Of a DNA stretch of 64,000 nt, positions 4,773 to 63,322 are shown in pieces. The DNA lies in assembly GCA_947372355.1 (NCBI GenBank), contig CANBTI010000001.1, positions 18,296 to 82,295 on the forward strand. The letters run 5' to 3'. This DNA is from Bdellovibrionales bacterium. Lineage in GTDB: Bacteria > Bdellovibrionota > UBA1018 > CAIMNF01. Positions within the stretch are counted from its first letter, which is position 1. The number at the start of each line of letters is the position of its first letter. Under the pieces are notes generated by a model. That model made no database searches, had not been told where the DNA came from, and worked only from the letters and a program-made list of their open reading frames with translations. The position numbers and the translations under genes were made by a program.

Positions 4773-6215
4773 TCAGCCGCTCATGGCAAATATTAGATCT
4801 TGGTAATAATGGATCGCTTTTTGTAATTCTTCCCAAGTCACTTGCTCGTTAGGACCCTTTGGATGAGTGTTCATAGAACCCATACCCACAATCGATGTTG
4901 GAAACTTTGCTTTAACAAATAAACCTGCATCGCTCAGGTAATTAATGTTTTTTGAGCTGAGCACAAATTCCGATAAAGCACCCGGTACAGAATAGTTTTT
5001 CATCATTTGAAAATGAAGGTGTGGATAGTGAACTAAAGATTTAGAAACTATTTCTTTCCATTCCTTTTCAACAACATTTAGCAGGTGATTCGGCATTAAT
5101 CTTAGTTCAAATGAAAGTGAAATTTTCCCAGGACTCTTCATTTGAACGCGGGTAATTGAACCTTGGCTATTGGGTTGATCAAAACTTAAATTAGGTTGAA
5201 GATTCAACTTTTCAATAAATTGTTTCCACTCATAATCAAGGCGCAAAATTACTTCAACTAACTGTTGAGGGATAAAGCTTGCTCCAGTATCCGTGGCGTT
5301 AGAGTATTCAACCCTGAATGTACGCTCTAGATTTCCGTGACTAAGATGTGTTTTGATGAATTGTTTAAAGTCTTCGAATTGAAAAGTAGTTAGATATATT
5401 TTTACTTTTGCTAAATCAGGAACTGCACCCTCTGCACCCTTTACAGATAAAGATCCCCACTGGAAATCAAACCCTGCATCCGTTGCATCCAATAATAAGT
5501 TCATGAGTAAATCAAAAGAATTGGATGCATGATTTTTTTGTGCAAGATCTAAACTTAATCCTGTGGTTAAAATTTCCACACATCGATTATAACCCTTTGA
5601 ATCTCGCTCTTTTCCAGCAGCATCAACTTCAATTTGAAAAACAAGTTGCCCTGGTGATTGGTTGGTTTGTAAAAGTTGAGTGGGTGCAAATGTGTAAACT
5701 GATTTTGGATTTACAGAAAGGGATTCAACTAAATATTTAGAACCCAGCATTCCAAATTGGGATGCGCATGTCCCCACTAAATATATTGGTGTTTTGTGGC
5801 TTCTCTTTGGCAAATCTGCGGCACCAAATATCCTACACAGAAAATCGAGTTTGCCTTGTACGGCTCCAGCACCAACAATTTTATTCTCATCTACATAAGC
5901 TGCAAAAGGATTACCTTGTGTGAGAGTCCATTGAGCGGGAATGCTTCCGCTAGTAACATCCAATGGATTTACAAATAAAACTCCGTTACGCGTTGATCGA
6001 TCCACTAGCGTGTCTGAACTAAATCCAATTAAATTAGACTGACGTTTTGAAAGTCGCTCTACCGAATGACCTACGGGTTGAATTTGAGTTTTAAATCCAA
6101 ACTCGGTCATGAGTGCACGTAAATATAAAACTAATTCATCATTCCCATTTTCTTCATGAGAAGGAATACTAAGTACTTTTTTTGCACATTCTTTAAAATA
6201 ACTGAAATTTGGCAT
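4773..6215 (-). CDS. M20/ArgE/DapE-like family protein; catalytic metal-ligand motifs not evident
   Basis: N-terminal region (LSIPSHEENGNDELVLYLRALMTEFGF) and overall length resemble M20 peptidases. The usual H-x-D, GxxD and EE motifs are not recognisable. ATG at 6215 chosen (ORF track TTG at 6233). Confidence 0.3.
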   Translation of the reverse strand: MPNFSYFKECAKKVLSIPSHEENGNDELVLYLRALMTEFGFKTQIQPVGHSVERLSKRQSNLIGFSSDTLVDRSTRNGVLFVNPLDVTSGSIPAQWTLTQGNPFAAYVDENKIVGAGAVQGKLDFLCRIFGAADLPKRSHKTPIYLVGTCASQFGMLGSKYLVESLSVNPKSVYTFAPTQLLQTNQSPGQLVFQIEVDAAGKERDSKGYNRCVEILTTGLSLDLAQKNHASNSFDLLMNLLLDATDAGFDFQWGSLSVKGAEGAVPDLAKVKIYLTTFQFEDFKQFIKTHLSHGNLERTFRVEYSNATDTGASFIPQQLVEVILRLDYEWKQFIEKLNLQPNLSFDQPNSQGSITRVQMKSPGKISLSFELRLMPNHLLNVVEKEWKEIVSKSLVHYPHLHFQMMKNYSVPGALSEFVLSSKNINYLSDAGLFVKAKFPTSIVGMGSMNTHPKGPNEQVTWEELQKAIHYYQDLIFAMSG

Positions 6216-6283
6216 CTTACTTATAAATATCAAATACTTATTTTTCTTGCAATGTCATAGGCAAAATCGTTTAATGAAACAAA

Positions 6284-6982
6284 ATGAGTGCATTTTCAGA
6301 CTTAGAAGCAGCGGGAAAGTATAAAGAGGCAATAGCCCTCCTTCAACAAAATCCCACTTACGATGCTAATTACTTTTTTAATTTAGGGGTATTATTTGGC
6401 AAGGATCAACAAGCAGGTCTAGCTGTGGCTTATTTGGAAAAATCTAACCATCTCAGACCACATGACCCTGAAATTCTTAAAAATCTTAAGATTGCTCAAC
6501 CTCAACTTAAACAGCAACTGTTGGACAATAAGGCGCAAATCACCGAATTAGACGGCGCATCCAACTCACTTGAAAAGTTTGCAGATCGAATACAGCAGGA
6601 TGAAATTCTAGGGGTCATCGGGCTGGTGATGCTCATTGTTTCGTTGCTATGGATACGTGCATATTTAAAGACACGCAACATCACAAAAACCTTTTTAAAA
6701 CCATCTGGCTGGTTTGGCGCACTGGCCGTAGTTCTCTCTTTTGCTTTTTATGGTGTTCATAGAGCTGGCAGCTCAAACCCACCGGCACTACTTTTAATGA
6801 AACAACCACTCAGGAGCGGTCCGGGTATGAATTATCCAGAAATTGTCTCACTTGATGCTGGAATCAAGGTAAGAATGGTTGGCTCATCCATTACCCTAAA
6901 TGAAACAGAGGGTTGGCAAAAAATTCGTTACAATCATGATTTAACAGCCTGGATTCCGCTCTCCAGTTTACTCCCACTGTAG
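6284..6982 (+). CDS. Membrane protein with TPR-like N-terminus, two TM helices and a C-terminal SH3b-like domain
   Basis: Hydrophobic segments GVIGLVMLIVSLLWI and WFGALAVVLSFAFYGV. C-terminal GWQKIRYNHDLTAWIP resembles bacterial SH3. Confidence 0.4.
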   Translation: MSAFSDLEAAGKYKEAIALLQQNPTYDANYFFNLGVLFGKDQQAGLAVAYLEKSNHLRPHDPEILKNLKIAQPQLKQQLLDNKAQITELDGASNSLEKFADRIQQDEILGVIGLVMLIVSLLWIRAYLKTRNITKTFLKPSGWFGALAVVLSFAFYGVHRAGSSNPPALLLMKQPLRSGPGMNYPEIVSLDAGIKVRMVGSSITLNETEGWQKIRYNHDLTAWIPLSSLLPL

Positions 6983-6991
6983 TATAAAGGT

Positions 6992-7636
6992 ATGATGAAA
7001 AAACATATGAGATTAATTCCAATTTTTATTCTAAGTCTCGCGCTTGTTTTTCAAGCTGGCTGTTCATCAAAAAAAGTAAATGAGAACGATCCAAAAGAAA
7101 TGTTTAATGATGCAGAAGCCGACATTAAAAATGATCGCTATCTTCTGGCCTTGGATAAACTAAGAGTTATCAAAAGTAAATTTGCTTACTCTAGTTATGG
7201 TGCATTAGCTCAATTAAAAATTGCAGATGTTTTTTTCTTACAAGAATCTTATCCAGAAGCTGCTTCATCTTTTGAAACTTTTGTTGAACTCTTTCCAAAG
7301 CATGAGAAGGCATCGTACGCGCTTTTTAAAGCTGGTGAATCTCAATTCTTGGATATTCCTTCAAATATTGCTCGCGATCTAAAATCTGCAGAAAGTGCAA
7401 TTCAAACTTTAGATCTATACGCCAGTAAATATCCAACAGGAGAACACCTTCAAAAAGCCCTCCAAATGAGACAACTGGCTTTTGATCGTTTAGCAGAAAA
7501 AGAACTGAGTATCGCAGAATTTTACATCAAAAGAAAAAAACCAGATTCCGCTAGATTAAGACTTAATAAAATTCTAGATAATTTCAGCAAATCTTCTTCA
7601 GCAGAAAAAGCCAAAGAACTTTTAAAATCACTTTAA
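6992..7636 (+). CDS. TPR lipoprotein, BamD (YfiO)-like outer-membrane assembly factor
   Basis: Lipobox LVFQAGC. TPR-like repeats with a BamD-like pattern (YALFKAGESQF..., AEFYIKRKKPDSA). Confidence 0.45.
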   Translation: MMKKHMRLIPIFILSLALVFQAGCSSKKVNENDPKEMFNDAEADIKNDRYLLALDKLRVIKSKFAYSSYGALAQLKIADVFFLQESYPEAASSFETFVELFPKHEKASYALFKAGESQFLDIPSNIARDLKSAESAIQTLDLYASKYPTGEHLQKALQMRQLAFDRLAEKELSIAEFYIKRKKPDSARLRLNKILDNFSKSSSAEKAKELLKSL

Positions 7637-7641
7637 ACACT

Positions 7642-8331
7642 ATGATCTCTATTGATGAAATTCATCAGAAAATAAAAGATCGCGATTATCACGGAGCTGA
7701 TTCGTTGATTGCTCTCGGCATTAAGCATGAGCCTGATAATGCAGATCTATATTATCTTCGAGGTTTACTTCGGAGCTATCAGGGAAAACTAACTCTCTCC
7801 ATTGAAGATCTTAAATATTGCCTTAAAACGGATTCTAAACACACAGACGCAGCAGTGTGTTTAAGCATCATTTTAAATGATATTGGTCATTATGAAGAAG
7901 CAAAAGTTATTTTTGATCGAGCAAACCAAAGTGTATTTTTAAAACAAACTGGCGATGACACTCAAGTTGACCAAAAGTTTGCTGTTAAACATTTTGAACT
8001 TGGAGATTTATATTTTCGTCATCGACGCTTTGATGAAGCAATTGAAGAGTACAATAAGGCAATTATTTTAGATCCTGCCAGTACAGAGACTAGAGTGAAA
8101 CGGGCAAAGGCTTTTGCTAAAAAAGGTTTTCTCACCAGAGCCATTCAAGATTTGCAGCAATTAAAAATTGAGCGTCCAAATAGTACGATGGTTGGAGTTC
8201 AGCTGGGCTTATTACACTACAGCCAAGGAAATGTACTTGATGCTCAAATTGAATGGGATTCGGTTTTAGAAAACGATCCTGTAAATCGCGAAGCCATTGC
8301 CTACTTAGAGCTGATTAAAAAATTAGATTAA
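7642..8331 (+). CDS. TPR-repeat protein
   Basis: Multiple TPR-like helical repeats (YYLRGLL..., AIEEYNKAIILDP...). Confidence 0.45.
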   Translation: MISIDEIHQKIKDRDYHGADSLIALGIKHEPDNADLYYLRGLLRSYQGKLTLSIEDLKYCLKTDSKHTDAAVCLSIILNDIGHYEEAKVIFDRANQSVFLKQTGDDTQVDQKFAVKHFELGDLYFRHRRFDEAIEEYNKAIILDPASTETRVKRAKAFAKKGFLTRAIQDLQQLKIERPNSTMVGVQLGLLHYSQGNVLDAQIEWDSVLENDPVNREAIAYLELIKKLD

Positions 8332-39659: not shown

Positions 39660-40658
39660 CTATCGAGCATCTCCTAAAAGCAAAGATACAATTCGATTCA
39701 TTTCCTCTAAAGATGAAAAGTGAATTTTCACTTCTCCTGATTTTTCACCCTTCACTTCAACTTTGGTCATATATTTACGAGTTAATAATTGAGTGAGACG
39801 CATGGTATCTGGATTAATTCCAATTCCAGCACTTTTTTTGGTTTCTTGTTTTTTAGGTGCGATAGCAGCCTTTTTTTCTTGGGCTGTTTTTTCAGTTTGT
39901 CTTACGCTTAGATTTTTTTCTAAAATCTCTTTCGCTAATCCTTCACGCTCACTGGTGTCTTCGATAGATAAAAGCGCCTTAGCGTGTCCGCGAGATAGGT
40001 TGCCTTTTTTTAATTGTAATAAAATGAAATCAGAAAGTTTTAGAATACGTAATGCATTTGCAATTGTTGCACGATCTTTACCCATTCTTTTCGCGAGATC
40101 TTCTTGAGACAATTGAAATTCTTGCATCAATTGAAAATAGGCAAGTCCTTCATCTACACAATTTAAATCTTCGCGTTGAATGTTCTCAACAATTGCTAGC
40201 TCTAAAGCCTCACGATCCGTGCTTTTTCTCATCACTACAGGCACTGTTTTTAGTCCTGCAATTTTTGAAGCTCTCAATCGACGCTCGCCCGCAATCAACT
40301 CATACTGCTCACCGTTTTTTCTAACGATGAGTGGTTGAATTAATCCGTTTTCACGAATGGATTGAGCAAGCTCTTGAAGTGCAGTTTCATCAAATTCGCG
40401 ACGTGGCTGAAATTCATTTGCTTTAATTTCATCTACACCAATCACCGAAATGCCCATGTGACGATCACGGTTTAAACCCGGTTGTTCGTTAGGATCAACA
40501 TTCGGTCTGCCGAGTGGGGTGGAATTTAAAATCACTGAAGCTGAATTCATAGAATTCGGACTAGTTGCGCTTGTGGATCCAGGAAATAAAGACGCTAATC
40601 CCTTACCTAGAACTGATTTGTTTTGATTTAAATTATTATTTTGTTTTGGAGTTTCCAT
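39660..40658 (-). CDS. parB: Chromosome partitioning protein ParB (Spo0J)
   Basis: ParB box LIQPLIVRKNGEQYELIAGERRLRAS plus an HTH region. Confidence 0.9.
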   Translation of the reverse strand: METPKQNNNLNQNKSVLGKGLASLFPGSTSATSPNSMNSASVILNSTPLGRPNVDPNEQPGLNRDRHMGISVIGVDEIKANEFQPRREFDETALQELAQSIRENGLIQPLIVRKNGEQYELIAGERRLRASKIAGLKTVPVVMRKSTDREALELAIVENIQREDLNCVDEGLAYFQLMQEFQLSQEDLAKRMGKDRATIANALRILKLSDFILLQLKKGNLSRGHAKALLSIEDTSEREGLAKEILEKNLSVRQTEKTAQEKKAAIAPKKQETKKSAGIGINPDTMRLTQLLTRKYMTKVEVKGEKSGEVKIHFSSLEEMNRIVSLLLGDAR

Positions 40659-40663
40659 ACTGC

Positions 40664-41473
40664 TTAAGCCCCTAATTCAGGTGTAAATGTTGATTTTTGA
40701 ATTTCATGCGTTTTAGTCAGAACTTCGCGCGCAAGATCTAGGTAAGCCGTGCAGCCCTTTGAGTTCACATCATAAAGAATGATTGGTTTACCAAACGAAG
40801 TGCATTCGCTGAGTTTAATATTTCTAGGAATTACCGTTTTAAAAACGAGCTCACTAAAATGAGTTCTCACTTCTTTTTCTACTTCATGACTTAATTTTAA
40901 TTGAGAGTTAAACATGGTTAAAACAATGCCTTCAATTTCAAGTGTAGGATTTACACTTTGGCGAATTAATCCAATGGTAGTCATCAGTTGCCCCAAGCCT
41001 TCTAATGCAAAGTATTCTGCTTGTAGTGGAATAAGAACTGAATCCGCTGCGGTTAAAGCATTTACAGTGAGAAGCCCTAAAGTTGGGGGGCAATCAATAA
41101 AAATGTAATCGTATTTGCTTTTCACTTCTTGAAGTGCAGCTTTTAATTTTCCTTCTCTCGCAAACGCGCCTACCAATTCAACTTCGGCTCCTGCTAAGTG
41201 TGGGTTGGCTGGCAATAAATCTAAGTGATCAATTTCAGTGGCACGGATTGCATTCGCAATTGCAACCTCACCCATCAACACATGGTAAGTGGTTGCTCCT
41301 CCGTCTTCAATATTTGGACTCACTCCAACCGATGAAGACGCATTTCCTTGTGGATCAAAATCTACGAGCAAAACTTTTTTATCTGCGAGTGAAAGTGATG
41401 CGGCTAAATTTACTGTGGTGGTTGTTTTTCCCACTCCGCCCTTTTGATTTACGACTGCAATAATTTTTCCCAT
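40664..41473 (-). CDS. parA: Chromosome partitioning ATPase ParA (Soj)
   Basis: Deviant Walker A KGGVGKTTT. About 269 aa. Confidence 0.9.
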   Translation of the reverse strand: MGKIIAVVNQKGGVGKTTTTVNLAASLSLADKKVLLVDFDPQGNASSSVGVSPNIEDGGATTYHVLMGEVAIANAIRATEIDHLDLLPANPHLAGAEVELVGAFAREGKLKAALQEVKSKYDYIFIDCPPTLGLLTVNALTAADSVLIPLQAEYFALEGLGQLMTTIGLIRQSVNPTLEIEGIVLTMFNSQLKLSHEVEKEVRTHFSELVFKTVIPRNIKLSECTSFGKPIILYDVNSKGCTAYLDLAREVLTKTHEIQKSTFTPELGA

Positions 41474-41760: not shown

Positions 41761-42429
41761 TTACTTTTTTTTAAGATTAATCAAAATTCTGTATTTGTCG
41801 CCGGAAGAGTACTCTTGTGAATGACTAACCGTCAATTTTTTGCCGAATCTACTTAATTGAGCTTCTTTCCACTCTTCAGACCAGCCCTTACTCTTAAATA
41901 AAATGAAATTGTTCCACGTGGAACAATTAGAAATCCATCCTGCTATCTTCTCTACCGTACCTACAGCTCTAGCAATAATAGTGTCAGGCTCAATTTCGTT
42001 AATGACCAGTTCCACCCTTGAGGAAGAAACTAATACATTTTTCAATCCCAACTCTGCGGCCGCATTTACCAAAAATTCAGCCTTCTGAGTTTCAGAATCA
42101 CACAAAAACCACTCTCTACCCTCTTCTAAATCAATAGAGGCCGCCAAAAGGCCAGGAACACCACAACCAGAGCCGATATCTAGAACAGCATCACCTAAAG
42201 TTTCCATTTTAAATAGCTCTAATACATCGATCAAATGGCCATCTATAAAATCATTTACACCCAAAATTCTTGTTAAATTTTGTATCTCATTTTCTCGGTG
42301 TAAAATTTCAGCAAATTTACTTGCACGAAAAACCTGCTCCGGCGTCAGGCTGAATTGTTTTTGATCAATTCTAGTTTGGATAGCCTTTGAAAACTGTTCT
42401 TGAGACGGGGTACTTGATTCAGTAATCAT
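41761..42429 (-). CDS. rsmG: 16S rRNA m7G527 methyltransferase RsmG (GidB)
   Basis: SAM motif VLDIGSGCGVPGLLAA. Overlaps the mnmG stop. Confidence 0.85.
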   Translation of the reverse strand: MITESSTPSQEQFSKAIQTRIDQKQFSLTPEQVFRASKFAEILHRENEIQNLTRILGVNDFIDGHLIDVLELFKMETLGDAVLDIGSGCGVPGLLAASIDLEEGREWFLCDSETQKAEFLVNAAAELGLKNVLVSSSRVELVINEIEPDTIIARAVGTVEKIAGWISNCSTWNNFILFKSKGWSEEWKEAQLSRFGKKLTVSHSQEYSSGDKYRILINLKKK

Positions 42430-54002: not shown

Positions 54003-55466
54003 ATGAATGATTTAAATCTTTGGGCAACAGCATATCGTCAGATTCTCCAAAACCACGCAAATCCAACCGAAATGAAGTTTTGGCTTGATGCGTTAAATTG
54101 GGGTAAGCTCGAACCTATGGCTTCTGGTAAGGTGCATATATTTCTCACAGCACCCAGCGTATTTTATGCAAACTTTATTAATCAACAATTTAAGGCCGAA
54201 ATCGAGAGCGCTACCTCTCAAATTTTAGGTAAATCCTGTGAAGTTTCAATCGCCGTATTAGAATCTAAGCCCGCTGAAGAAGTAGAAGAAGCAATTATAT
54301 CTATCAGTAATACTTCAGTAAATAACACTTTTGAAAACCCTTTGTCTCCACCTACCGCTTCTGATTTTACTCCAGCAATGGCTCAATCTAATCAAAGTTC
54401 CCCTTCTCCAGGTTTTGTGAATCGTGGATCTCATAAATCAAATGTAATCATTAATGATTTTTTAGACCCAACTTTAACCTTTGATAACTACATCATGGGG
54501 CCTTCAAATCAATTTGCTTATGCATCCGCTTTTTCAACTTCAGAAAAACCAGCCGTTCAATACAATCCACTTTTTATTTATGGCCCTCCAGGAGTTGGAA
54601 AAACCCATCTATTGCATGCTTTAGGTAATCAAATAAAAAAGAAAAATCCTCATATTCGGGCTTATTTTGTTTCGGCTGAAAAATTTGTGAACGAATTTAT
54701 CGAAAGCATACAACATAAAAATCCAGGCGATTTTAGGGCTAAATACCGCGATAATGTTGATCTTCTTCTCATCGACGATATTCAATTTATCGTGGGTAAG
54801 GATCGTTCAGAAGAAGAGTTTATCCATACCTTCAATACATTACACAGTCTTAAAAAAATGATTGTTCTTACTTCTGATAAAGCGCCAAAAGACATCGATG
54901 GTTTAGAGGACCGAATTCGTACTCGTTTTGAAATGGGACTGGTTGCTGATATTCGCCCGCCAGAAATTGAAACTCGCATTGCAATTTTAAAAGCAAAAGC
55001 GGAAGCAGACGACATGTATTTGCCAGATGATGTTGCAACATTTTTAGGTACCTATGTAAAAGATACGGTCAGAAACCTTCATGGTGCTTTAGTAAAGCTT
55101 CAACAATATGCTTCACTCACAGGCTCAGAAATAACTTTAGATTTAGCTAAGCAAGTTTTACAAAACTCCATTCCTGAAGAAGGACAAGAATACACAGTTG
55201 AAATAATACTCAATGCTGTTTGTAAGCACTTTAATCTTAAGATGAAAGAACTAAAGGGAACATCCAGAGCAAAACAGTTTTCTATGCCTCGCCAAATTGC
55301 CATGTATCTGATTAGAAAATACGCAAATTTAGGATTTAGAGAAGTAAGTCAGATTTTTGACAAAGATCACTCCACCGCAGTTCATGCTTATCAAAAAATC
55401 GAACTGGAGATGGAATCTGACCCTGAACTAAAGAGAAATGTGGAAACCATTAGAGAGCAGCTGTAA
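54003..55466 (+). CDS. dnaA: Chromosomal replication initiator DnaA
   Basis: AAA+ Walker A GPPGVGKTHLLHA, sensor motifs, and a C-terminal DNA-binding domain. Start taken at MNDLNLW. The ORF-track N-terminal extension runs antisense through rpmH and is rejected. Confidence 0.9.
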   Translation: MNDLNLWATAYRQILQNHANPTEMKFWLDALNWGKLEPMASGKVHIFLTAPSVFYANFINQQFKAEIESATSQILGKSCEVSIAVLESKPAEEVEEAIISISNTSVNNTFENPLSPPTASDFTPAMAQSNQSSPSPGFVNRGSHKSNVIINDFLDPTLTFDNYIMGPSNQFAYASAFSTSEKPAVQYNPLFIYGPPGVGKTHLLHALGNQIKKKNPHIRAYFVSAEKFVNEFIESIQHKNPGDFRAKYRDNVDLLLIDDIQFIVGKDRSEEEFIHTFNTLHSLKKMIVLTSDKAPKDIDGLEDRIRTRFEMGLVADIRPPEIETRIAILKAKAEADDMYLPDDVATFLGTYVKDTVRNLHGALVKLQQYASLTGSEITLDLAKQVLQNSIPEEGQEYTVEIILNAVCKHFNLKMKELKGTSRAKQFSMPRQIAMYLIRKYANLGFREVSQIFDKDHSTAVHAYQKIELEMESDPELKRNVETIREQL

Positions 55467-55596
55467 AAAGCGTCAAATTAGCCACATTAATCAAATAAAC
55501 TATAATAAAATAAAATAATTTCATTTAAATTTCTTACAAAACGTAAGAACCTATTATTAGGCCTGGGGCGCAAGGATGCTTCACGGGAGGATAATT

Positions 55597-58500
55597 TTGG
55601 TTTCAAGGATGAAGATTTTTAAAAAAGTTTCTACACTTTTCTCAGTGTTATTCATAACTCTGAGCCCTTCTACGTCCTTTGCTAACTGGACACGTTATCA
55701 AAATTATAAAATAAAATTAGACGTTCCAACAGGCTGGAAAATTGAGCGTGATCTTTTTGGAATGCCAATTACCGTATTGGGTCCTGAAAGAAATGGAGAG
55801 CGTGCAGTACTGAGTGTTCAGCACACCCCCGTTTTTGGTTTAGAATTTAATCATCAAAATATAGTTAAAACTAAAAATCAATACTATGAAGGAAGAAAAA
55901 AATGGGTTGATTCACTTGAAGACGCTTCTTTTTTAAGTGAAATTCCATACCAACACATAAAGCAAGAAAATGGGAACGACGGCTTTGAAATGGGTTTTAG
56001 ATACCATGTCAGAAACCTCGACTTAGAAGAAAAAAGTATTCAATTGAATTGTGGAAATCGACTTTTTTTAATTAAAACTCTTTCAAGCAATAAAATTCCT
56101 GAAGCAGATACCGCTCAATTAGCAAAATTAGTGAATGAGTTAGATTGCGTTTCTACCACTTCAAAAGATGGCGCTTATGAACCAAGCGTTCTTCAAGATT
56201 TTGATCGTAAATTTAAGGATCAAATATCTGGAACTTCACCTTGGCCTACAAAAGAGCAAATTAAAGATTCTGGCACACCTGAAAAAGCAGTCATGCTTGA
56301 AGCATTGGTAGAGTTCTATAAAAATTACGAAAATTCTGGAGGAGAAGATTCTTATTCATACAATCGTAATCCAGTTAAAGATCAATATTTTGCAAAAATT
56401 AAAGATAGAACAGATCAAATTTTTTCAATCTTCTTATCTAAAGCGTCTGCAAAAGATGGTTATGATTGTTTTTTTGGTGGTTGGCCAAGTAAATTTATAA
56501 AAAAGAATGGTGTAGCTACCTGTGGTTATCCATGGGAAACAAATTCAGATTATTCAAAAAACAATTCTGGCTGTGGAGAAGGAAAACTAGGCTGTAACCC
56601 TTCTCTATTTGGATCAAATATTTGTGTTGATGTAAGCAATAGCGGCGAACGATCACATGCTACTCTTTCTTGCGAAATGGGTTTTCGCTCTAGTGGTAAA
56701 AGTTACGAAGATGTTGTTAAATCAGCTGATTTTGATCAATCCGTTCTAAATAACACTCTAAACTCAGCAAAAGAAGTGTGCAGTCAGGAACCATATACCT
56801 CAGCAAATTATGGTTTATGTTCAACCCTTAAAGAAAAATTAGGAATCAGTATCTCATCCGGAAAACATGCTCAAGATGAATCCGATGTAAAATTTATTAA
56901 TGGCATGGAAGAAATGAAGCCAGAAAATTTTGATGAATATGTAAAGGCTACAGAAAAAAACTATAAAGAATTTGAAGCTCGATGCATCGACGAAAAGGGT
57001 GATCTTAAAACAAATGTTGAAGGATGTTTAGAGGATCATTTAGCCATTTTAAATGACTTAGAAAAAATTGATAAAAGATCAAAAGATATTGGGCAAGAAT
57101 TACAAGAAGAAGATGCACCAAACTCAATCAATAATGGAAATTGTTCAAAGGCAGACTGTAGTTCACCCACTGTTGAAAGTGTTCAACCTAAAAAGGATGA
57201 ACCATCAAATGGTAAGTGTTCAGTTCAAGAGGAAAAAAGAAAAAAAGAAAAAGAATGTAATTGGTCTAAGGGTATGTTCATGGCAGGAAGTTGTGCTTGG
57301 AATGTAATCACTTCAATGGTGAGTTCATTGTGGGGAACAATCAAAGCAATAGGTGAGCTTGCGTGGGATGGTGTGAAGTGGGTTGGGAATAAATCTGTTC
57401 AGGGTGCCAAATGGCTTGCTAGTTTGGTTGGTTATGAAGATGAATCATCTAAAAAATTAAATACAGCTGCACAAACGAGTAATAGCGCAATTGAATCTTT
57501 CAAAAAAGATCCAATGGGATCTGCTATCAATTTTTTCAAAAGTATCTATGATGGTGTTGTAAATTTTGTTTCTACTGATGTTGCCTGCGAAAAATGGTCT
57601 GGCGTTCCACACAATTCAACATGTTTATTGCCTGCAAGTGGTTGGAAATGTATGCCTTGCATGGATCGAATGGATACCGTTTGTTCAACAGTAGGATATG
57701 TTGCGGCTGAATTTCTACCTGCTTTCTTCACCGGTGGAGCAACTTCTGCTTTAAAAGGATCTGCAATCGCTGCAAAAGTAGGTGGATATCTTGGTAAAGT
57801 GAGTAAGCTGGGGAAACTCACTCGACTAGAAGCTGATATTATAAAACTTACGAGTAAAGCAACTAAAGTAGAAAGATACGGCTTAAGAGCAGCTAAATAT
57901 GAATCAGAAGTTTTAAAAGCAGAAATCGGTATTGCTGGAAATTTAAGTAAAACACAAAAAATTATTGGAAAAGTTTATAATGTAAGCCGCTGGCCAGTTA
58001 AACAATTCAATAAAATAAAGAGTGCATATACCCGTGCAAAAAATGTATTAACTGGGTTTAAATCTAAGGCCTTTGGTTCTGTTAAAAATACAATTGAAGG
58101 ATTACAGAGACTACGAAAAAAATATTATGTTGTTAAAGCTGGTTCATGGGTAGTTGAAAACACTGTTGTTCAACCATTAAAATTAGCAGCAAAAATAGCA
58201 ACCGCTCCTATTCGTTATCCAATGAGATGGACAAATAGTTATGTCAGGACACAAGCGAAGATATATAAGGTAGGACTAAGATTTGGAGAAAAAAGATTTA
58301 ATGATGTGTTGGTAAAATCAGCAAGCATGAGTAAGTATCCAACCTTAGCTAAAAACATAGCTTTATATAGCTCTATTTCTAAATATCCTGCATTTGGCTC
58401 TCATATGTTGGATGAGTTTAGAGAAAGACTCAGCATGAAAGATGATAACAATCCAAATATGTTTTGGAAATCATCCCATGAAATTGAAGTACAAGCTAAA

Positions 58501-59121
58501 CTTGATGGTAAAAATCCTGAGGAAGTAAAATCAATTCTAAAGAAAAACAGGATCGATTTAATGACTAATACAATCGTTATGGATGCCTTAAATGCGGGTA
58601 AAGATCCAAAAGAAGTGGATTTAAAATACCTTTCAAAAATTAGAGGGATTTCCAATGAAGAAATTCGTGTGGAATCAATCGATTCAAGACTTCAAGCAAT
58701 TGCCAATGGAACTTTGCCAACTTTCACTCAAAGTGATTATGATGCAATAGCAAAAATTAATAAGATCAGTTCAACAGAAGCAAAAAATCAAATTCAAAAT
58801 GAAGTTAAAATTCAAGTTGCTTCATCAAAGGTAATCAATCTTTTGAATGAGGGTAAAAAACCAGAAGATGAGGCATTGAAAAATCTAGCATCACTCAAAA
58901 AAGTGAACGTTGATGAACTGGTAATTGAATCCATTGATTATAGAATTAATTCTGTATTGGGCGGAGTAAAACCAAAGTTTTCTAGTTTTGATTATGAAAC
59001 ATGGGCAAGAGTAAATCATGTCTCTATTGAAGAGGCTAAAAAGTATATCGATTCTGAAGTGCAGGATTCATTAAATATGATTTCTGATCCTTCATCAACT
59101 AATGGAGCAAAAACGCAATGA
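55597..59121 (+). CDS. Large secreted Cys-rich hypothetical protein (cassette gene A, about 1175 aa)
   Basis: Probable TTG start at 55597, 6 nt after the SD GGGAGGA. Signal peptide ...LFITLSPSTSFA. The N-terminal domain carries a DVPTGWK motif. The middle is cysteine-rich. The C-terminus carries two tandem repeats of about 70 aa. Confidence 0.55.
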   Translation: MVSRMKIFKKVSTLFSVLFITLSPSTSFANWTRYQNYKIKLDVPTGWKIERDLFGMPITVLGPERNGERAVLSVQHTPVFGLEFNHQNIVKTKNQYYEGRKKWVDSLEDASFLSEIPYQHIKQENGNDGFEMGFRYHVRNLDLEEKSIQLNCGNRLFLIKTLSSNKIPEADTAQLAKLVNELDCVSTTSKDGAYEPSVLQDFDRKFKDQISGTSPWPTKEQIKDSGTPEKAVMLEALVEFYKNYENSGGEDSYSYNRNPVKDQYFAKIKDRTDQIFSIFLSKASAKDGYDCFFGGWPSKFIKKNGVATCGYPWETNSDYSKNNSGCGEGKLGCNPSLFGSNICVDVSNSGERSHATLSCEMGFRSSGKSYEDVVKSADFDQSVLNNTLNSAKEVCSQEPYTSANYGLCSTLKEKLGISISSGKHAQDESDVKFINGMEEMKPENFDEYVKATEKNYKEFEARCIDEKGDLKTNVEGCLEDHLAILNDLEKIDKRSKDIGQELQEEDAPNSINNGNCSKADCSSPTVESVQPKKDEPSNGKCSVQEEKRKKEKECNWSKGMFMAGSCAWNVITSMVSSLWGTIKAIGELAWDGVKWVGNKSVQGAKWLASLVGYEDESSKKLNTAAQTSNSAIESFKKDPMGSAINFFKSIYDGVVNFVSTDVACEKWSGVPHNSTCLLPASGWKCMPCMDRMDTVCSTVGYVAAEFLPAFFTGGATSALKGSAIAAKVGGYLGKVSKLGKLTRLEADIIKLTSKATKVERYGLRAAKYESEVLKAEIGIAGNLSKTQKIIGKVYNVSRWPVKQFNKIKSAYTRAKNVLTGFKSKAFGSVKNTIEGLQRLRKKYYVVKAGSWVVENTVVQPLKLAAKIATAPIRYPMRWTNSYVRTQAKIYKVGLRFGEKRFNDVLVKSASMSKYPTLAKNIALYSSISKYPAFGSHMLDEFRERLSMKDDNNPNMFWKSSHEIEVQAKLDGKNPEEVKSILKKNRIDLMTNTIVMDALNAGKDPKEVDLKYLSKIRGISNEEIRVESIDSRLQAIANGTLPTFTQSDYDAIAKINKISSTEAKNQIQNEVKIQVASSKVINLLNEGKKPEDEALKNLASLKKVNVDELVIESIDYRINSVLGGVKPKFSSFDYETWARVNHVSIEEAKKYIDSEVQDSLNMISDPSSTNGAKTQ

Positions 59122-59654
59122 AAACAATACTGTCAATTTTATTAGTCATCTGTGGTGCAAAAGCATTTGGTGAATCTAAAAATTACAACATTCAAAATCA
59201 AAAAATTACGATTGATGTGCCAACAGGATGGAAAGATGTTGAAGATTTTGCTGGCAGTCCACTCACCTTTTTTGGGCCTGAAAATAAAGACGGACCAAGA
59301 ACAGTAGTAACCATTTCACCAACTGGACAAGAAGATAAAAATCATTTTTTCGCTGATATGAAAAAAAATATCGCTGGTTATAAAGTTGGACGTGAGGATT
59401 GGTTAAAAGGGAATTTTGGAACCTCCATTTCTTACGATAAATATAAGGAAGAAAAATGGACTGGGATAGAAGTAGCTCGCGAATTTGGTTATCATTACGA
59501 ACTACCAAGCGGAAAGTTTTATGAAAGATCCGTTTATGTGATGTGCGGTGGTAATAAACTTGTGTACATCAAATCATTAGTTCCAGAACAGTTTGAATCA
59601 ACTCATAATTCGTTAGTAGAAAAATCAATTAAAAGCTTAGGGTGCGCAAAATGA
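59118..59654 (+). CDS. Secreted small protein paralogous to the N-terminal domain of cassette gene A (cassette gene B)
   Basis: Signal peptide MKTILSILLVICGAKAFG. Shares DVPTGWK..GPE..C-G-N-L..IK-L...LGC blocks with residues about 40-190 of gene A. Its start overlaps the gene A stop (ATGA). Confidence 0.55.
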   Translation: MKTILSILLVICGAKAFGESKNYNIQNQKITIDVPTGWKDVEDFAGSPLTFFGPENKDGPRTVVTISPTGQEDKNHFFADMKKNIAGYKVGREDWLKGNFGTSISYDKYKEEKWTGIEVAREFGYHYELPSGKFYERSVYVMCGGNKLVYIKSLVPEQFESTHNSLVEKSIKSLGCAK

Positions 59655-61762
59655 AAAATACAGATCAACAAAACGGAAAAATAATCATGAACTCATTATC
59701 AAAATTATTGGCTTTTGCAATTTGTTTACAGCTAACGGTAGGAATTTATCCAGTTCAAAACCACATGGCTTATGCGCAAGATGATCGTAGTATCAGTACT
59801 AATGAAAGTAAGGCAAATCGTGGGCCTGCTTCAGATAATTTGAATATGGATGCTAATGAAGCTAATGATCATTCTAAAAATTATATTAAATTATTTAATG
59901 ATCAATGTGTTGGTTCAAATGGAAAAATAAAAGGCAGTACTGCTTTTATGCATGATAAGGAAATCGGTTCTAGTGAAGAACCAAGAATGTATAATTGTTC
60001 TGAAGCGGCAACAATAATTCAAAAAATTATTATACCAGGAATGAATGATATTTCTGAAGAAGTAAAACATTCAAAAATAAATCCAAACTGCCCTACTTGT
60101 GGAATTCCAAACCAAGATGAAGATTCTGTTAAAAATGGTCAGCTGGTTTCGGGATCATGTTCTGCAGAAGAACAAAAGAAGTTTGCTAAACAAGATTGTT
60201 CCTTTGGTTGCAATATTTTATATACCATTGGTTCACAAGATAAAAGTTGCCCTAAATCTTCTGGTATTTCTGGAAAATGCGCACTTGAAATTTCAAAAGG
60301 CGTTTTAAAAGGTATTTATGATGTTCTTGCTTTTCCATTCATTATGGTAAAAGACGCCGGTGTTTGGACATATAATAAAATTTTTGGCAAATCCGAGAAT
60401 GAAACTACAGAAAAATCACAAGTTCTTAGTGGTTTAACAGATCAAGATATTAAGGATGGGGAAAAAAATCCTGAAAAATTAAAACAAACTTTACTTCAAA
60501 GATCTGCAAAATTCTTTAATGATCTTGGAAAAGCAATTATTGGTTATCCCGAGTATGAGGAAAAATCAAAATGTGCTGATTGTGCTGCTAAAGCAGATCT
60601 TATGTGCGGTGTTATAGGTAATACTAGCGGATTTTTAATCACAATGTTTGGTAATGGAGCAATTTTTGGTGCTACTGAAGGTATTGCTGAAAGAATTGCA
60701 TCAAAACTTGTTAAGGTATCAAAAGGTACAGGCAAATTTGCTAGTATTGCTAGTAAAACTATACTCGTAGCTGAAAAAACTAGTTTAGCTGCTACTAAAG
60801 TTGGTAAATTTGTTTCTAAGCCATTTATTCGTTTTGGTGAAGTTGTGGCGAGTGGAGCCTCAAAAGTTTCTGTTTCAAGTTTAAAATGGTGGGAGTCTTT
60901 TAAATCAAAAAAATTATATGAAAATTTAATTAAATTTAAAGATTCTAGATCTTTAAAAGTTGTATCTAACTCAATCCCAGGAAAAATAACACTTTCGATC
61001 GGGCGTGGAGTTAGTAATAGTTTTGAAAAAGCAGGTGTTTTCGTTAAAAAAATTGGTAAGGTTGCTAGTAATATTCAAGAAACTACTCATGATTTTGGTC
61101 TTGGATTAACTAATTCAAAGTTATTAAGAGCTCAAAAAATTAATAAACTTAGATCAGCTAAGGCTGCAGCTAATGCTACAAATGAAGCTCTTCGTGGAGT
61201 GGATGAACTTAAAGTAGTGAAAGATGCTTCTGAAGGCAGAACTGCTGAACAGTGGACTGATTTAAAACAAAAAGCTTCCAATGAACTTCAGGGCTTAAAA
61301 GTGAAACATTTGGATGATGTTGAAAATGCGGTGCCAGCCGAATTTGAAATTAATGCAGGAAAAGAAAAAAGTATTCTTGTTGAAACTTCAAAAGGAACGC
61401 GTGAATTAAAAATCGCAAAACCTGCTGATGTTGAAAGCATCCATACTTATCAAGATGGAAAATTAGCCATCGTTCAACATAGAGATGGTTCATACATCAT
61501 TCATGATATGGATGCCGGTTCTCACCTCACCCAAGTTCCAAAAGGAAAAGAAGAGTTTGTAGATGCTCTTCTTGGTAAGAAAACTAAGAACTTTGATGAT
61601 CTTGAAGGCATGTCTTACACACAAGTGAAGACAAACTTAAAAATCAACGGAACTAAGTTTACTGAAGAAGTAGATGCAACTGGAGCTAAAACAATGAAAA
61701 TTGAAACTCCAAATGGATGTAATCCGAAATCACTCAGTTTTGGTGTGGATAAAGCGATCTAA
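59642..61762 (+). CDS. Secreted Cys-rich hypothetical protein paralogous to the central module of cassette gene A (cassette gene C)
   Basis: Signal-like LSKLLAFAICLQLTVGIYPV (alternative start MNSL at 59687). Shares the blocks C-x2-C-x5-C-x2-(I/V)G...F..G(A/G)..G...I..K and C..G..G.CA...G.L.GIYDVLAFP with gene A. Overlaps gene B by 13 nt. Confidence 0.5.
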   Translation: MRKMKNTDQQNGKIIMNSLSKLLAFAICLQLTVGIYPVQNHMAYAQDDRSISTNESKANRGPASDNLNMDANEANDHSKNYIKLFNDQCVGSNGKIKGSTAFMHDKEIGSSEEPRMYNCSEAATIIQKIIIPGMNDISEEVKHSKINPNCPTCGIPNQDEDSVKNGQLVSGSCSAEEQKKFAKQDCSFGCNILYTIGSQDKSCPKSSGISGKCALEISKGVLKGIYDVLAFPFIMVKDAGVWTYNKIFGKSENETTEKSQVLSGLTDQDIKDGEKNPEKLKQTLLQRSAKFFNDLGKAIIGYPEYEEKSKCADCAAKADLMCGVIGNTSGFLITMFGNGAIFGATEGIAERIASKLVKVSKGTGKFASIASKTILVAEKTSLAATKVGKFVSKPFIRFGEVVASGASKVSVSSLKWWESFKSKKLYENLIKFKDSRSLKVVSNSIPGKITLSIGRGVSNSFEKAGVFVKKIGKVASNIQETTHDFGLGLTNSKLLRAQKINKLRSAKAAANATNEALRGVDELKVVKDASEGRTAEQWTDLKQKASNELQGLKVKHLDDVENAVPAEFEINAGKEKSILVETSKGTRELKIAKPADVESIHTYQDGKLAIVQHRDGSYIIHDMDAGSHLTQVPKGKEEFVDALLGKKTKNFDDLEGMSYTQVKTNLKINGTKFTEEVDATGAKTMKIETPNGCNPKSLSFGVDKAI

Positions 61763-62218
61763 TACTGGTTAATTAATATTATCTATAAGTAACAAATAGT
61801 TACGTTATAATTAATATTTCATCCCCCAGTTAGTGTTCTTTTATTTTCTTATAACCTGTTTTTGAACCATGAATTAACCGCTTATCCACATTCATTTGTG
61901 GATAGTTATGGTGGATAATTGTTTTATTGAACCTATTAAATTCAGTTTAATTATTATTTTATTTAGTAATTGGATACTTTTGGTGAATAAGCTGGTGAAT
62001 GACCATATGCTTCTTGGTTTTAATGGATTTTTCTTTTTTATCCCCAAACTTTGAATTAATATTCACCTTTGTTTTAAACCATTATAAAACATAGATTCAT
62101 GTTTAATTTTAATTAGTTAGAGGGTTTTCCACCTAATTCACACTACTATGACTACTATGATCTTTATATATAAATACTTCTATGAGAGTAATTTGAGATT
62201 CGAGGTTGTGGATAAGAT
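61763..62218. other. Candidate chromosomal replication origin (oriC): DnaA-box cluster plus AT-rich unwinding region
   Basis: TTATCCACA at 61882-61890. Reverse-orientation boxes TGTGGATAG (61897-61905), GTGGATAAT (61911-61919) and TGTGGATAA (62207-62215). Near-box TTATCCCCA at 62037-62045. Flanked by very AT-rich stretches. Confidence 0.7.
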
Positions 62219-63322
62219 ATGAAATTTAATATTCAAAGAGATCATCTTTTAAGTGCATTACAAAAAATTTCTTCAGTGATTGAAAAGAAACATACCATGG
62301 AGATTCTGGGTAATATTCTTTTTGAAGCAAAGAATGATCAACTCACTCTTTCAGGAACAGATCTTGAAGCAGGAATTCAAATCACTTTAGATGCACAAAT
62401 TCAAGAGCCAGGTAAGTTAACACTTTCTACAAAAAATATTACCGACATCACTAAAGAATTACCAAACCAAGTGATGCACTTTAATTTAAAGCCAAATCAT
62501 TGGGTTGAAATTACATGCTCTAAAGCTAGATTCAACGTTGTGAGTATTTCAGCAGAGGGTTATCCTAATCTTCCTCTCTTTGAAGAAAAAAATTATATCT
62601 ACGCTAATTCAGAACGATTAAATGAAATGATCGAAAAAACTGAGTTTGCAGTTTCAACCGATGCTACTCGTTATCATTTGAATGGAGTTTATTTTGAATT
62701 ACTTCCTTCTGGAATGATTCGAATGACAGCAACCGATGGTCATCGTCTTTCTTATATTGATCATGAAGTTTTTACTAAACCCATTGATTTAAAACGTGGA
62801 GTGGTAATTCCTAAAAAAGGATTAACAGAGCTTCATAAAATGCTTCAAGGAACTAAAAATATAGGAATCGCTTTTGAGAAGGGTTATTTATATGCCAAAT
62901 CAGAAGGTGCTTTTTTATTCATTCGTTTGATTGAAGCTGACTACCCTGATTACCGACAAGTCATTCCTCAAAATTTAGATAAAACTGCAATTCTAAAACG
63001 TGAAGATCTTTTAGGTGCTTTAAAAAGAGTTTCCCTCATGGCTCATGAAAAAAGCAAAGGGGTTAAAATCAGTGTTCAAAATGATTTAATGACCGTTGCT
63101 TCTTCAAATCCTGATATGGGTGAAGCCCGTGATGAAATTAGTATGAAATATCAAGGTGAAGCAGTTGAAATTGGATTCAATGCTAAATACATTATGGAAT
63201 GTCTTGAAGTGATGAAGGATCCAGAAATTGAATTACACTTTAAAGACAAAACCAAACCAGGTTTAATTCAATCGGTAGCGCATAAAAATCATTGTTATGT
63301 AATTATGCCGATGCGTATCTAG
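62219..63322 (+). CDS. dnaN: DNA polymerase III beta sliding clamp
   Basis: N-terminus MKFNIQRDHLLSALQKISSVIEKKHTMEILGNILFEA. Three-domain clamp of 367 aa. C-terminus ...VIMPMRI. Confidence 0.9.
   Translation: MKFNIQRDHLLSALQKISSVIEKKHTMEILGNILFEAKNDQLTLSGTDLEAGIQITLDAQIQEPGKLTLSTKNITDITKELPNQVMHFNLKPNHWVEITCSKARFNVVSISAEGYPNLPLFEEKNYIYANSERLNEMIEKTEFAVSTDATRYHLNGVYFELLPSGMIRMTATDGHRLSYIDHEVFTKPIDLKRGVVIPKKGLTELHKMLQGTKNIGIAFEKGYLYAKSEGAFLFIRLIEADYPDYRQVIPQNLDKTAILKREDLLGALKRVSLMAHEKSKGVKISVQNDLMTVASSNPDMGEARDEISMKYQGEAVEIGFNAKYIMECLEVMKDPEIELHFKDKTKPGLIQSVAHKNHCYVIMPMRI

Follow-up and report, generated by a model that had tools for sequence, protein, structure and literature searches.

A conserved DnaA-box cluster and candidate unwinding module upstream of dnaN in an uncultured Bdellovibrionales bacterium

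A gap of 456 bp (positions 61763–62218) precedes the sliding-clamp gene dnaN in a 64,000-nucleotide stretch of DNA (the window) from an uncultured Bdellovibrionales/Oligoflexia-type bacterium. The AT content of the gap is 73.5%, compared with a window average of 62.7%, and three genes (orf1181, orf178 and orf706) separate it from dnaA, which encodes the initiator. Here, we describe the genes and DnaA boxes of this locus, compare them with those of related genomes and weigh the reading of the gap as a chromosomal origin of replication (oriC).

Gene neighbourhood of the gap

The genome carries a genuine dnaA, whose product scores 458 bits with the TIGR00362 equivalog model (cutoff 343.9) and also matches Pfam Bac_DnaA and Bac_DnaA_C, and the gene neighbourhood is of the oriC type: rpmH, on the strand opposite to dnaA, ends at 53918, and recF starts at 63334, after dnaN (gene calls in L023). 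No Rfam family or tRNA was found across the whole window. A palindrome resembling parS is present at 41910. Open reading frames of 51–52 amino acids within the gap (61892–62054) were rejected as genes because relatives carry insertions and deletions at those positions.

The proteins of the three-gene insert have no Pfam or NCBIfam matches and nothing significant in a PDB sequence search; the fold search of orf178 was the sole informative functional search among them. The insert is absent from the related loci L004, L005, L009, L012, L013 and L017, in which dnaA abuts the gap upstream of dnaN, and the number of inserted genes after dnaA in relatives is 0, 1, 2 or 3. The window departs from the B. 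bacteriovorus-type arrangement, with the origin inside the dnaA–dnaN intergenic region, in that the three genes intervene; since the presumed origin does lie in the dnaA–dnaN gap in the insert-free loci, the layout in the window is a derived variant. Judged by this gene order, dnaA was parted from the presumed origin by a recent insertion specific to this clade. Neither meaningful terminal repeats, direct or inverted, nor an integrase or transposase was found around the insert, and we therefore do not call it a mobile element. The insert of L006, considered as a homologue of the PMT_2-like membrane protein of the window, proved not to be homologous.

The DnaA-box cluster

The perfect DnaA box TTATCCACA occurs three times in the window, against 0.62 expected, and all three copies fall within the 472 bp from 61744 to 62215 (Table 1). 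When up to one mismatch is allowed, the window has 26 boxes, and 6 of these lie in the same segment. First-order Markov simulations (n = 400, 64 kb) reached a maximum per 480 bp of four one-mismatch boxes and one perfect box, compared with the six and three observed, and none of the 400 equalled the observed clustering. A weight matrix trained on intergenic regions of relatives only gave 31 matches scoring 10 bits or more across the window, 10 of them in 61743–62216 (a roughly 63-fold enrichment in density), and the other 500-bp bins of the window hold at most four matches each, even at 7 bits. The rpmH–dnaA gap (84 bp) contains no box and the dnaA–orf1181 gap (109 bp) no strong one; the single strong match near the start of dnaA, at 53834, is inside rpmH. 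A second cluster across dnaA, as in the two-part origins of the B. subtilis or H. pylori type, is thus absent from the window.

Related genomes keep this arrangement. The densest 500-bp box bin lies directly upstream of dnaN in 18 of 18 related loci, also in those outside the training set (L004, L012, L015, L017, L018 and L022) and independently of gene insertion after dnaA, and the positions of the boxes within the array are kept. Most boxes of the clade end in C (TTATCCACC); the copy of this form at 61910–61918 has one mismatch to TTATCCACA. At the two ends of the array, box 61744 is conserved in L015 and L019 and box-like in L022, and box 62207 is identical in L001, L015, L019 and L022, other relatives having GGTGAAT or GGTGGAT, overlapping AAGGTGG.

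A DnaA-box cluster upstream of dnaN had been proposed in an earlier sequence-only reading of the window, and every sequence quoted there is present and clustered beyond chance. That reading named a denser cluster elsewhere as evidence against itself; the cluster in the gap is the sole one in the 64-kb window. Several details are revised here. The three boxes described at 61882–61919 all exist, the third in a register one base away from the one given (GGTGGATAA rather than GTGGATAAT), and their orientations run +, −, − instead of alternating. The perfect reverse box before the dnaN ATG (TGTGGATAA) is confirmed at a spacing of 3 nt (GAT) rather than 4, and the one-mismatch box reported at 62037 is TTATCCCCA at 62038–62046. 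The AT content ascribed to the surroundings of the boxes, more than 75%, was slightly too high, both for the gap as a whole and for 61882–61919 (68%). The boxes at 61744–61752, 61819, 61982, 61994, 62125 and 62134 and the conserved core at 62125–62188 had gone unmentioned.

Table 1 Features of the dnaA–dnaN region, in window coordinates
Feature	Position	Strand	Remarks
dnaA, initiator gene	54003..55466	+	True ATG at 54003; 6.3 kb upstream of the proposed origin
orf1181, orf178, orf706 (insert)	55576..61762	+	Separates dnaA from the proposed origin; not origin machinery
Perfect DnaA box TTATCCACA	61744..61752	−	In the final codons of orf706; 11.5 bits
DnaA box variant TCATCCCCC	61819..61827	+	14.6 bits; TTATCCCCCAA aligned in nearly all relatives
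Perfect DnaA box TTATCCACA	61882..61890	+	Relatives align ATTCACC
DnaA box CTATCCACA (top strand TGTGGATAG)	61897..61905	−	1 mismatch; conserved column block TTGGTGGAT
DnaA box TTATCCACC (top strand GGTGGATAA)	61910..61918	−	Clade consensus; 14.7 bits; conserved block TTGGTGGATAA
DnaA box TTATTCACC	61982..61990	−	13.4 bits; conserved block TGGTGGATAA
DnaA box TCATTCACC	61994..62002	−	12.7 bits; conserved block GGTGGAAAAG
DnaA box TTATCCCCA	62038..62046	+	12.6 bits; conserved block GTTATCCCCAAAA
Degenerate box ATATTCACC	62058..62066	+	Positional match to TTTTTATCCCCC/TCCACC of relatives; below the matrix threshold in the window
Box TTTTCCACC, upstream member of same-direction pair	62125..62133	+	12.5 bits; T/C/C/C core invariant in 20 loci
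Box TAATTCACA, weaker downstream member of pair	62134..62142	+	2 mismatches to consensus; abuts TTTTCCACC with no gap
DnaA-trio-like array, CTACTATGA twice	62143..62160	−	9-bp perfect tandem repeat
AT-rich core TCTTTATATATAAATACTT, probable DNA unwinding element	62161..62179	.	Maxima of identity and AT across loci
Conserved motif CTATGAGAG	62180..62188	+	Directly past the AT core; nearly invariant TATGAGAG
Perfect DnaA box TGTGGATAA	62207..62215	−	13.0 bits; overlaps the spacer of the dnaN ribosome-binding site
dnaN, sliding clamp	62219..63322	+	Pfam DNA_pol3_beta, three domains; ATG at 62219

A conserved box pair, triplet array and AT-rich core

In the incC basal unwinding system (BUS) of Bacillus subtilis, DnaA-box 6/7, DnaA-trios and an AT-rich 27-mer lie upstream of dnaN; a BUS is defined by a box with at most two mismatches, preferably in a same-direction tandem pair, and by at least three consecutive trios (3′-NAN-5′, with 3′-GAT-5′ preferred) no more than 16 bp from the box (PMC6669920, PMC8287927, PMC10201434). 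In the window, TTTTCCACC and TAATTCACA, with two mismatches each, form such a gapless same-direction pair, which is conserved in 20 loci, and relatives have only box-compatible forms (ATTCACA, ATCAACA, GTCCACA, CTTCACA) at 62134. The + strand reads TTTTCCACC-TAATTCACA-CTACTA..., which is the strand and orientation of a BUS. The box orientation can be likened to that of E. coli R1.

The array that follows reads CTA CTA TGA CTA CTA TGA on the top strand and 3′-GAT GAT ACT GAT GAT ACT-5′ on the bottom strand, and is presumed to be the site at which a DnaA filament binds single-stranded DNA. It shares 14 of its 18 bases with 5′-CTACTATTACTTCTACTA-3′, the trio-complement strand of B. subtilis, and faces the boxes in the same way as there; at least four in-frame CTA triplets out of six occur at only two places in the window (both strands), of which the array is one. 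In the GAT register, TGA interrupts every third triplet, so that the longest trio run is two; uninterrupted trios in this register are found in L012 (six), L005, L004 and L026 (four each). In a shifted register, and only there, a run of four trios at a spacer of 14 agrees with the permissive trio rule. Because about 38% of the window's boxes with up to two mismatches agree with it as well, the published permissive rule has no discriminating power outside known origins.

Across 13 loci, column identity (0.91–0.99) and AT fraction (0.87–0.91) both reach their highest values in the AT core at 62161–62179; over 62147–62181 they are 0.94–0.99 and 0.87–0.91. Among the 24-mers of the gap, the core ranks as the least stable in 13 of 19 loci and among the top three in the other loci. 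The window belongs to the latter: two stretches elsewhere in its gap, at −20.6 and −20.8 kcal/mol, are slightly less stable than the core at −21.4 kcal/mol. A low-stability, AT-rich element thus flanks the boxes at the level of sequence, and the CTATGAGAG motif beside it may delimit the unwinding element on its right or act as a transcription-start element. The module of box pair, trio-like array and AT core is conserved in 20 loci and also in L026, whose DnaA is only 61% identical. A 21-mer from the core matched eight metagenome loci, seven of them about 66 bp upstream of dnaN; the lone match away from dnaN (L016) has no related genes nearby, looks non-bacterial and was set aside as a chance match. 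The whole gap is AT-rich here, and only the comparison with relatives singles out 62143–62181 as the probable unwinding site. For the AT-rich unwinding region that the earlier reading had described without locating an element, this block is now the candidate.

The gap might be an origin in which 62143–62188 is conserved mainly as the promoter or 5′ leader of dnaN, the (TA)n run being −10-like and TATGAGAG the start region, with unwinding in another AT-rich stretch of the gap such as 61920–61975 or 62082–62116; we consider this rather unlikely. dnaN needs a promoter, no terminator was found after orf706, and the block, 35–75 nt before the ATG, has a typical promoter position; the two less stable stretches of the window and the AT-rich spacers that recur at about −125 and about −420 in relatives would offer other places to unwind. 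However, no sigma-70 consensus (TTGACA, 16–18 nt, TATAAT-like) occurs in 61600–62300, compared with 4.0 ± 2.1 in shuffles, and ATGACT, which resembles a −35 element, makes a poor promoter match together with TAAATA. In the alignment, the AT-rich stretches other than the core are weakly conserved (identity 0.42–0.63), and in relatives of higher GC content they lose their AT-richness; the core, by contrast, is the stability minimum in 13 of 19 loci, and the abutting box pair and B. subtilis-like CTA array favour unwinding at the core. Promoter and unwinding roles of the block are, in any case, compatible with each other. The autoregulated dnaN promoter suggested by the sequence-only reading gains no support from 61600–62300, where promoters of non-consensus type could still be in use.

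Instead of or besides DnaA-trios, the 9-bp repeat (ACTACTATG, 2.1 perfect copies), the three CTATGA copies around the AT core (62146, 62155 and 62180, the third within the CTATGAGAG motif), or both, could bind an accessory or regulatory protein specific to the lineage. In favour of this, the trio-breaking TGA at every third triplet is the majority form in the clade, and the conservation exceeds what trios alone require. We nevertheless judge it unlikely: the TGA triplets are the most variable ones (TGA, CGA, ATA, CTA, AGA, ATG, CTC), the CTA triplets are invariant and several relatives have canonical trios in place of TGA, so that a trio-type constraint fits better than a fixed protein site, and no candidate factor turned up. 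Two further readings could be drawn from the unusual conservation and the missing terminator and consensus promoter, and are distinctly unlikely even when taken together. In one, the two copies of CTACTATGA and the third CTATGA past the AT run form a composite site for a lineage-specific factor; in the other, read-through from the inserted operon of secreted proteins, together with one perfect box in the operon's last codons and one at the ribosome-binding site of dnaN, would tie origin firing or dnaN expression to a life-cycle programme.

The proposed origin and its relation to known systems

GC skew stays negative over some 45 kb on the left and is positive over at least 14 kb on the right. 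Over the roughly 71 kb of the replicon that were covered, the cumulative minimum falls at 54,657, on the left of the proposed unwinding site and 7.5 kb away from it. Gene strand switches where the skew changes sign, so that the gap and the rpmH–dnaA junction, 8 kb apart, are inseparable by skew, and the three inserted genes have strongly positive skew although an origin in the gap would put them on the left arm. Per-gene skew at four-fold degenerate sites was discarded as a replication signal: the values scatter and mainly reflect codon preference.

The earlier interpretation of the locus as an origin is supported by the box cluster, the sole one in the window, by its conservation among relatives and by the candidate unwinding module; the skew also changes sign nearby, albeit together with gene strand. 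We think it highly likely that 61763–62218, with the addition of box 61744 in the final codons of orf706, is a single, undivided DnaA-dependent oriC. Judged from the roughly 71 kb covered of a fragmented metagenome-assembled genome, it is very improbable that the cluster only regulates dnaN or titrates DnaA (compare datA and the non-origin clusters of B. subtilis) while the origin lies elsewhere: although dnaA is not next door, a perfect box covers the dnaN ribosome-binding region and the dnaA–dnaN linkage is broken in the more distant relatives L025 and P0101 locus, so that the origin position in the group may be fluid, regulation needs neither some 12 boxes that keep their positions and point both ways nor an unvarying module of box pair, trio-like array and AT run, the skew and gene-orientation switches lie in the same neighbourhood, neither gap flanking dnaA has a strong box, and insert-free relatives show the classical dnaA–oriC–dnaN layout, mapped experimentally in B. 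bacteriovorus (PMC5124646).

The oriC of B. bacteriovorus (BdoriC) spans about 250 bp directly between dnaA and dnaN and has eight boxes of consensus NN(A/T)TCCACA, of which boxes 7 and 8 fall within the 3′-terminal part of the preceding gene and the box nearest the unwinding element is TTTTCCACG (Makowski et al. 2016, PMC5124646). Compared through that published box table and text, the proposed origin, from the same phylum-level group, is likewise single and undivided, with its candidate unwinding element at the end of the array; the array likewise extends into the last codons of the gene before it (orf706, box 61744), TTTTCCACC corresponds to TTTTCCACG beside the unwinding element, and boxes 61744, 61882, 61897 and 62207 match the BdoriC consensus. 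It differs in its size (456 bp, about 12 boxes), in the 6.2-kb insert that sets dnaA off and in the last base of its boxes, which is C in most boxes of this clade and A in BdoriC. The DnaA of strain HD100 (N-terminus MELNSSFW, from a primer in the paper) was absent among the 120 DnaA homologues listed.

Like the B. subtilis BUS, the core leads from a same-direction box pair through a CTA-type array of 18 nt, read on the strand of the boxes, and an AT-rich run to dnaN, and the 9 bp between the better box and the array are inside the published range. Unlike the BUS, it has no GC-rich spacer between boxes and array, and TGA at every third triplet makes the trios non-consecutive in the GAT register. 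The B. subtilis oriC consists of two parts, whereas the cluster upstream of dnaA is missing here; a DnaD or DnaB system is not to be expected in a Gram-negative lineage. In Synechococcus elongatus the origin is also directly upstream of dnaN and dnaA is not a neighbour; here, in contrast, dnaA is merely 6.3 kb away and in the same orientation.

By analogy with the B. subtilis BUS and the B. bacteriovorus oriC, DnaA would occupy about 12 nine-base boxes (clade consensus TTATCCACC, three perfect TTATCCACA), its gene lying 6.3 kb upstream. The abutting boxes at 62125–62142 would guide an ATP-DnaA filament onto the bottom-strand trio-like array at 62143–62160, the filament would stretch and melt the adjacent AT-rich core at 62161–62179, and the helicase would be loaded at the melted core, from which forks would depart both ways. 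The ancestral origin would have lain between dnaA and dnaN; a secreted-protein cassette may then have entered between dnaA and the origin, after which the origin would have remained with dnaN.

This is very probably an ordinary kind of origin, unusual in the few unrelated genes between it and dnaA, and the finding leaves current understanding unchanged. It gives an uncultured freshwater Bdellovibrionales/Oligoflexia lineage a well-supported origin annotation and a defined candidate unwinding module; the annotation can serve replichore analysis and the estimation of growth rates from metagenomes by peak-to-trough ratios. The genes inserted after dnaA, in at least two unrelated inserts, amount to a natural experiment in which the origin stays with dnaN. 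Furthermore, a Gram-negative, non-model clade with a strongly conserved Bacillus-type box pair, CTA array and AT run agrees with the proposal of an ancient unwinding system.

Gene neighbourhood and DnaA boxes ahead of dnaN

The gap between orf706 (59642-61762) and dnaN (62219-63322), exactly 61763-62218, is very probably the chromosomal origin. The window carries a classical origin gene neighbourhood. The minus strand carries, on the left side, parB, parA, rsmG and mnmG (39.6-44.3 kb), then mnmE, yidC, rnpA and rpmH. The plus-strand genes begin with dnaA (true start 54003; TIGR00362 equivalog at 458 bits, cutoff 343.9), which is followed by ORFs of 1181, 178 and 706 codons without family assignment (orf1181, orf178 and orf706), the gap, dnaN and recF; to the right of the window, contig CANCOA010000003.1 (GCA_947379695.1) carries gyrB, a FabH-like gene and gyrA. 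Because dnaA ends 6.3 kb upstream of the gap, the layout is not 'dnaA-oriC-dnaN', and since neither the rpmH-dnaA gap (84 bp) nor the dnaA-orf1181 gap (109 bp) holds a strong box, there is no sign of a two-part origin.

GC skew tentatively points to an origin in this neighbourhood. It is negative (-0.05 to -0.17) from about 9 to 55 kb and positive from 55 kb for at least 14 kb rightward, with a cumulative minimum at 54,657 over the roughly 71 kb of replicon covered. The sign change coincides with the gene-strand switch between rpmH and dnaA, and four-fold degenerate sites give no clean replication signal; the skew therefore cannot discriminate between gaps 8 kb apart. Within rsmG, beside parA/parB (39660-41473), a perfect 16-bp palindrome, TGTTCCACGTGGAACA (41910-41925), differs from the parS consensus by two symmetric changes. 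It is likely a parS site, centromere-like in function, with the origin some 20 kb away.

A sequence-only reading had proposed a DnaA-box cluster and origin here, and all its quoted boxes are present, with one string to be corrected (see table). Three of them, within 61882-61918, do not alternate in orientation as it described but run + - -, the gap is AT-rich at 73.5% rather than above 75%, and the perfect reverse box lies 3 rather than 4 nt before the ATG. The clustering at 61744-62215 exceeds chance: the 64-kb window contains three perfect boxes (0.62 expected), which all fall within 472 bp, a stretch that also includes 6 of the 26 one-mismatch boxes. No 480-bp window in 400 Markov simulations had more than four one-mismatch boxes or more than one perfect box.

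A box weight matrix trained on the relatives' intergenic regions only has T-T-A-T-C-C-A-C-C-A as its consensus. The positions that carry most information (4, 6 and 8) are among those named as conserved across phyla in the study that mapped the Bdellovibrio bacteriovorus oriC experimentally (Makowski et al. 2016, PMC5124646). Of the 31 window matches scoring 10 bits or more, ten fall within 61743-62216; this is a 63-fold enrichment that no other 500-bp bin approaches; a denser cluster at another locus, which the sequence-only reading named as evidence against an origin here, is thus absent from the 64-kb window. The over-represented box words of the clade (61743-62216 plus the gaps of L001-L022, the related loci) end in C (ATCCACC, TCCACCA, ATTCACC), and one, TATCCCC, has C at position 7, against canonical ...CCACA; the window itself retains three perfect TTATCCACA boxes. 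The domain IV motif of DnaA is KDHSTAVHA; its E. coli counterpart is RDHTTVLHA.

Elements of the probable origin region in the window
Element	Position	Strand	Remark
Perfect DnaA box	61744-61752		Last codons of orf706; overlooked by the sequence-only reading
DnaA box TTATCCACA, perfect	61882-61890	+	Quoted string present
DnaA box TGTGGATAG	61897-61905	-	One mismatch; quoted string present
DnaA box GGTGGATAA	61910-61918	-	One mismatch; quoted string off by one base
DnaA box TTATCCCCA	62038-62046		Quoted string present
Box TTTTCCACC	62125-62133	+	Upstream member of same-direction pair
Box TAATTCACA	62134-62142	+	Second member of pair
CTA CTA TGA CTA CTA TGA	62143-62160	read on +	Perfect 9-bp tandem repeat
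AT-rich run TCTTTATATATAAATACTT	62161-62179	read on +	
Motif CTATGAGAG	62180-62188	read on +	
DnaA box TGTGGATAA, perfect	62207-62215	reverse	3 nt ahead of dnaN ATG

Position of the probable origin region among relatives

A DnaN-based scan, with one genome per species, recovered 14 loci (DnaN identity 69-94%), all in Bdellovibrionales/Oligoflexia-type metagenome-assembled genomes. Between dnaA and the origin gap, related loci carry no gene (L004, L005, L009, L012, L013 and L017; gaps of 450-650 bp), homologues of orf178 and orf706 (L002, L007, L008, L010, L011 and L018/L020), all three genes (L001 and L015, like the window) or an unrelated 455-codon membrane protein (L006, 8188-9555); L022 has orf178 and orf706 homologues and, ahead of them at the locus start, the C-terminal part of a gene resembling orf1181. 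In 18 of 18 loci, box matches are densest in the 500-bp bin directly upstream of dnaN; insertions after dnaA, of whatever kind, thus leave the origin-like region beside dnaN. In an alignment of 13 gaps, mean identity is 52%, box positions are nonetheless kept and almost all window boxes correspond to a block of aligned columns; at two positions (61864-61880), the window sequence has decayed. Box cluster, gene neighbourhood and comparative position beside dnaN together support the origin reading.

Just downstream of dnaA, L026 has a pair of genes for 201 and 603 amino acids (5562-7989), and L025 (5585-9440) and the P0101 locus, whose DnaA is about 52% identical, carry a quite different set of genes and lack dnaN within 4 kb. 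In this group, insertions appear to recur at this position. The closest relative in the genome collection, L001 (CALPVV020000009.1), shares the three-gene insert, has a DnaN 94% identical and bears the title 'Nitrosovibrio sp. Nv4'. The labels of all the remaining relatives are Bdellovibrionales, Oligoflexia or Bdellovibrio, and the L001 title suggests that the bin is mis-assigned or contaminated.

The window's insert (55576-61762) comprises three co-directional genes, each with a signal peptide and without a match in Pfam, NCBIfam and PDB sequence searches, and is not recognisably a mobile element. The orf178 model adopts a PsbP/DcrB/LpqN/Eag-chaperone-like fold (pLDDT 75, Foldseek E ~1e-6). 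The same domain forms the N terminus of orf1181, whose middle part resembles orf706, which suggests that orf1181 is a duplicated and fused orf178-orf706 pair. Directly past the dnaA stop codon, a short inverted repeat (TTCTTAC-AAAAC-GTAAGAA, 55520-55545) may be the dnaA terminator.

A conserved core and putative unwinding module

With moderate confidence, we assign a putative unwinding module to 62125-62181. The AT-rich unwinding region of the sequence-only reading thus has a candidate in the gap, within a core (62125-62188) that it overlooked. Conservation and AT content are both maximal at 62147-62181 (column identity 0.94-0.99, AT 0.87-0.91) across loci whose gap GC ranges from 27% to 47%. 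In a 20-locus alignment, the CTA triplets and box cores are invariant, variants of the second box of the pair are all box-compatible and the variable triplets are the TGA ones. Canonical triplets run uninterrupted for six in L012 and four in L005, L004 and L026, the last with DnaA 61% identical and the same element order. Nearest-neighbour stability makes the core block the gap's least stable 24-mer in 13 of 19 loci and puts it in the top three in all others; its rank in the window is third, because the gap there is AT-rich throughout. What is directly observed in the origin region is the presence of boxes, the conservation and the low duplex stability.

A 21-mer from the core found eight metagenome loci. 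In seven it precedes dnaN by about 66 bp; the other match (L016, 761-781), in apparently non-bacterial sequence with no related genes around it, was taken as due to chance. At 62142-62188, the perfect 9-bp tandem repeat ACTACTATG (x2.1) is accompanied by CTATGA at 62146, 62155 and 62180, flanking the AT core, the downstream copy within the near-invariant TATGAGAG. About 20 nt past 62188 come a ribosome-binding site and the perfect reverse box, then the ATG.

A dnaN promoter or leader function, or an accessory factor, could also account for the extreme conservation, the tandem repeat and the CTATGA triplication; against a promoter, 61600-62300 contains no sigma-70 consensus promoter, which also leaves the proposed 'autoregulated dnaN promoter' without support, though dnaN may have a non-consensus one. 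The same interval contains no terminator, and dnaN may be transcribed by read-through from orf706. The perfect box at 62207-62215 overlaps an AAGGTGG ribosome-binding motif, and relatives carry box-like GGTGAAT or GGTGGAT there, so its conservation may reflect either DnaA binding or merely the ribosome-binding site.

Comparison with known DnaA-dependent origins

In the basal unwinding system (BUS) of Bacillus subtilis, a same-direction box pair guides ATP-DnaA onto adjoining DnaA-trios (3'-GAT-5'), and the resulting filament stretches and opens neighbouring AT-rich DNA; the trio-complement strand there is 5'-CTACTATTACTTCTACTA-3' (PMC6669920, PMC8287927, PMC10201434). The window core shows the same arrangement of box pair, trio-like array and AT-rich run, and 62143-62160 shares 14 of its 18 bases with that strand and lies on the corresponding strand with respect to the boxes. 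In B. bacteriovorus, the box adjoining the unwinding element is TTTTCCACG (PMC5124646), against TTTTCCACC in the window, and the gene upstream has two boxes within its 3' end, comparable to the window's 61744 box.

On the basis of these parallels, we propose that DnaA would fill an array of about 12 boxes, that the pair at 62125-62142 would nucleate a DnaA filament on the bottom strand of 62143-62160, and that the AT-rich 62161-62179 would melt and receive the helicase; DnaA binding, filament formation and melting at 62125-62179 are thus proposed by analogy. In the GAT register, the window array is interrupted at every third triplet, and the published criterion of at least three consecutive trios finds them only in a shifted register; that permissive criterion also accepts about 38% of all window boxes with up to two mismatches. 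Membership of the window core in the BUS class is thus likely rather than formally established.

The gap reads as a DnaA-dependent oriC of the already known Bdellovibrio/Bacillus 'next to dnaN' kind. It differs from known members in its longer box array, the clade's preference for C at box position 9, the lack of a GC spacer ahead of the trio-like array and a dnaA set apart by clade-specific gene insertions; these differences are modest.
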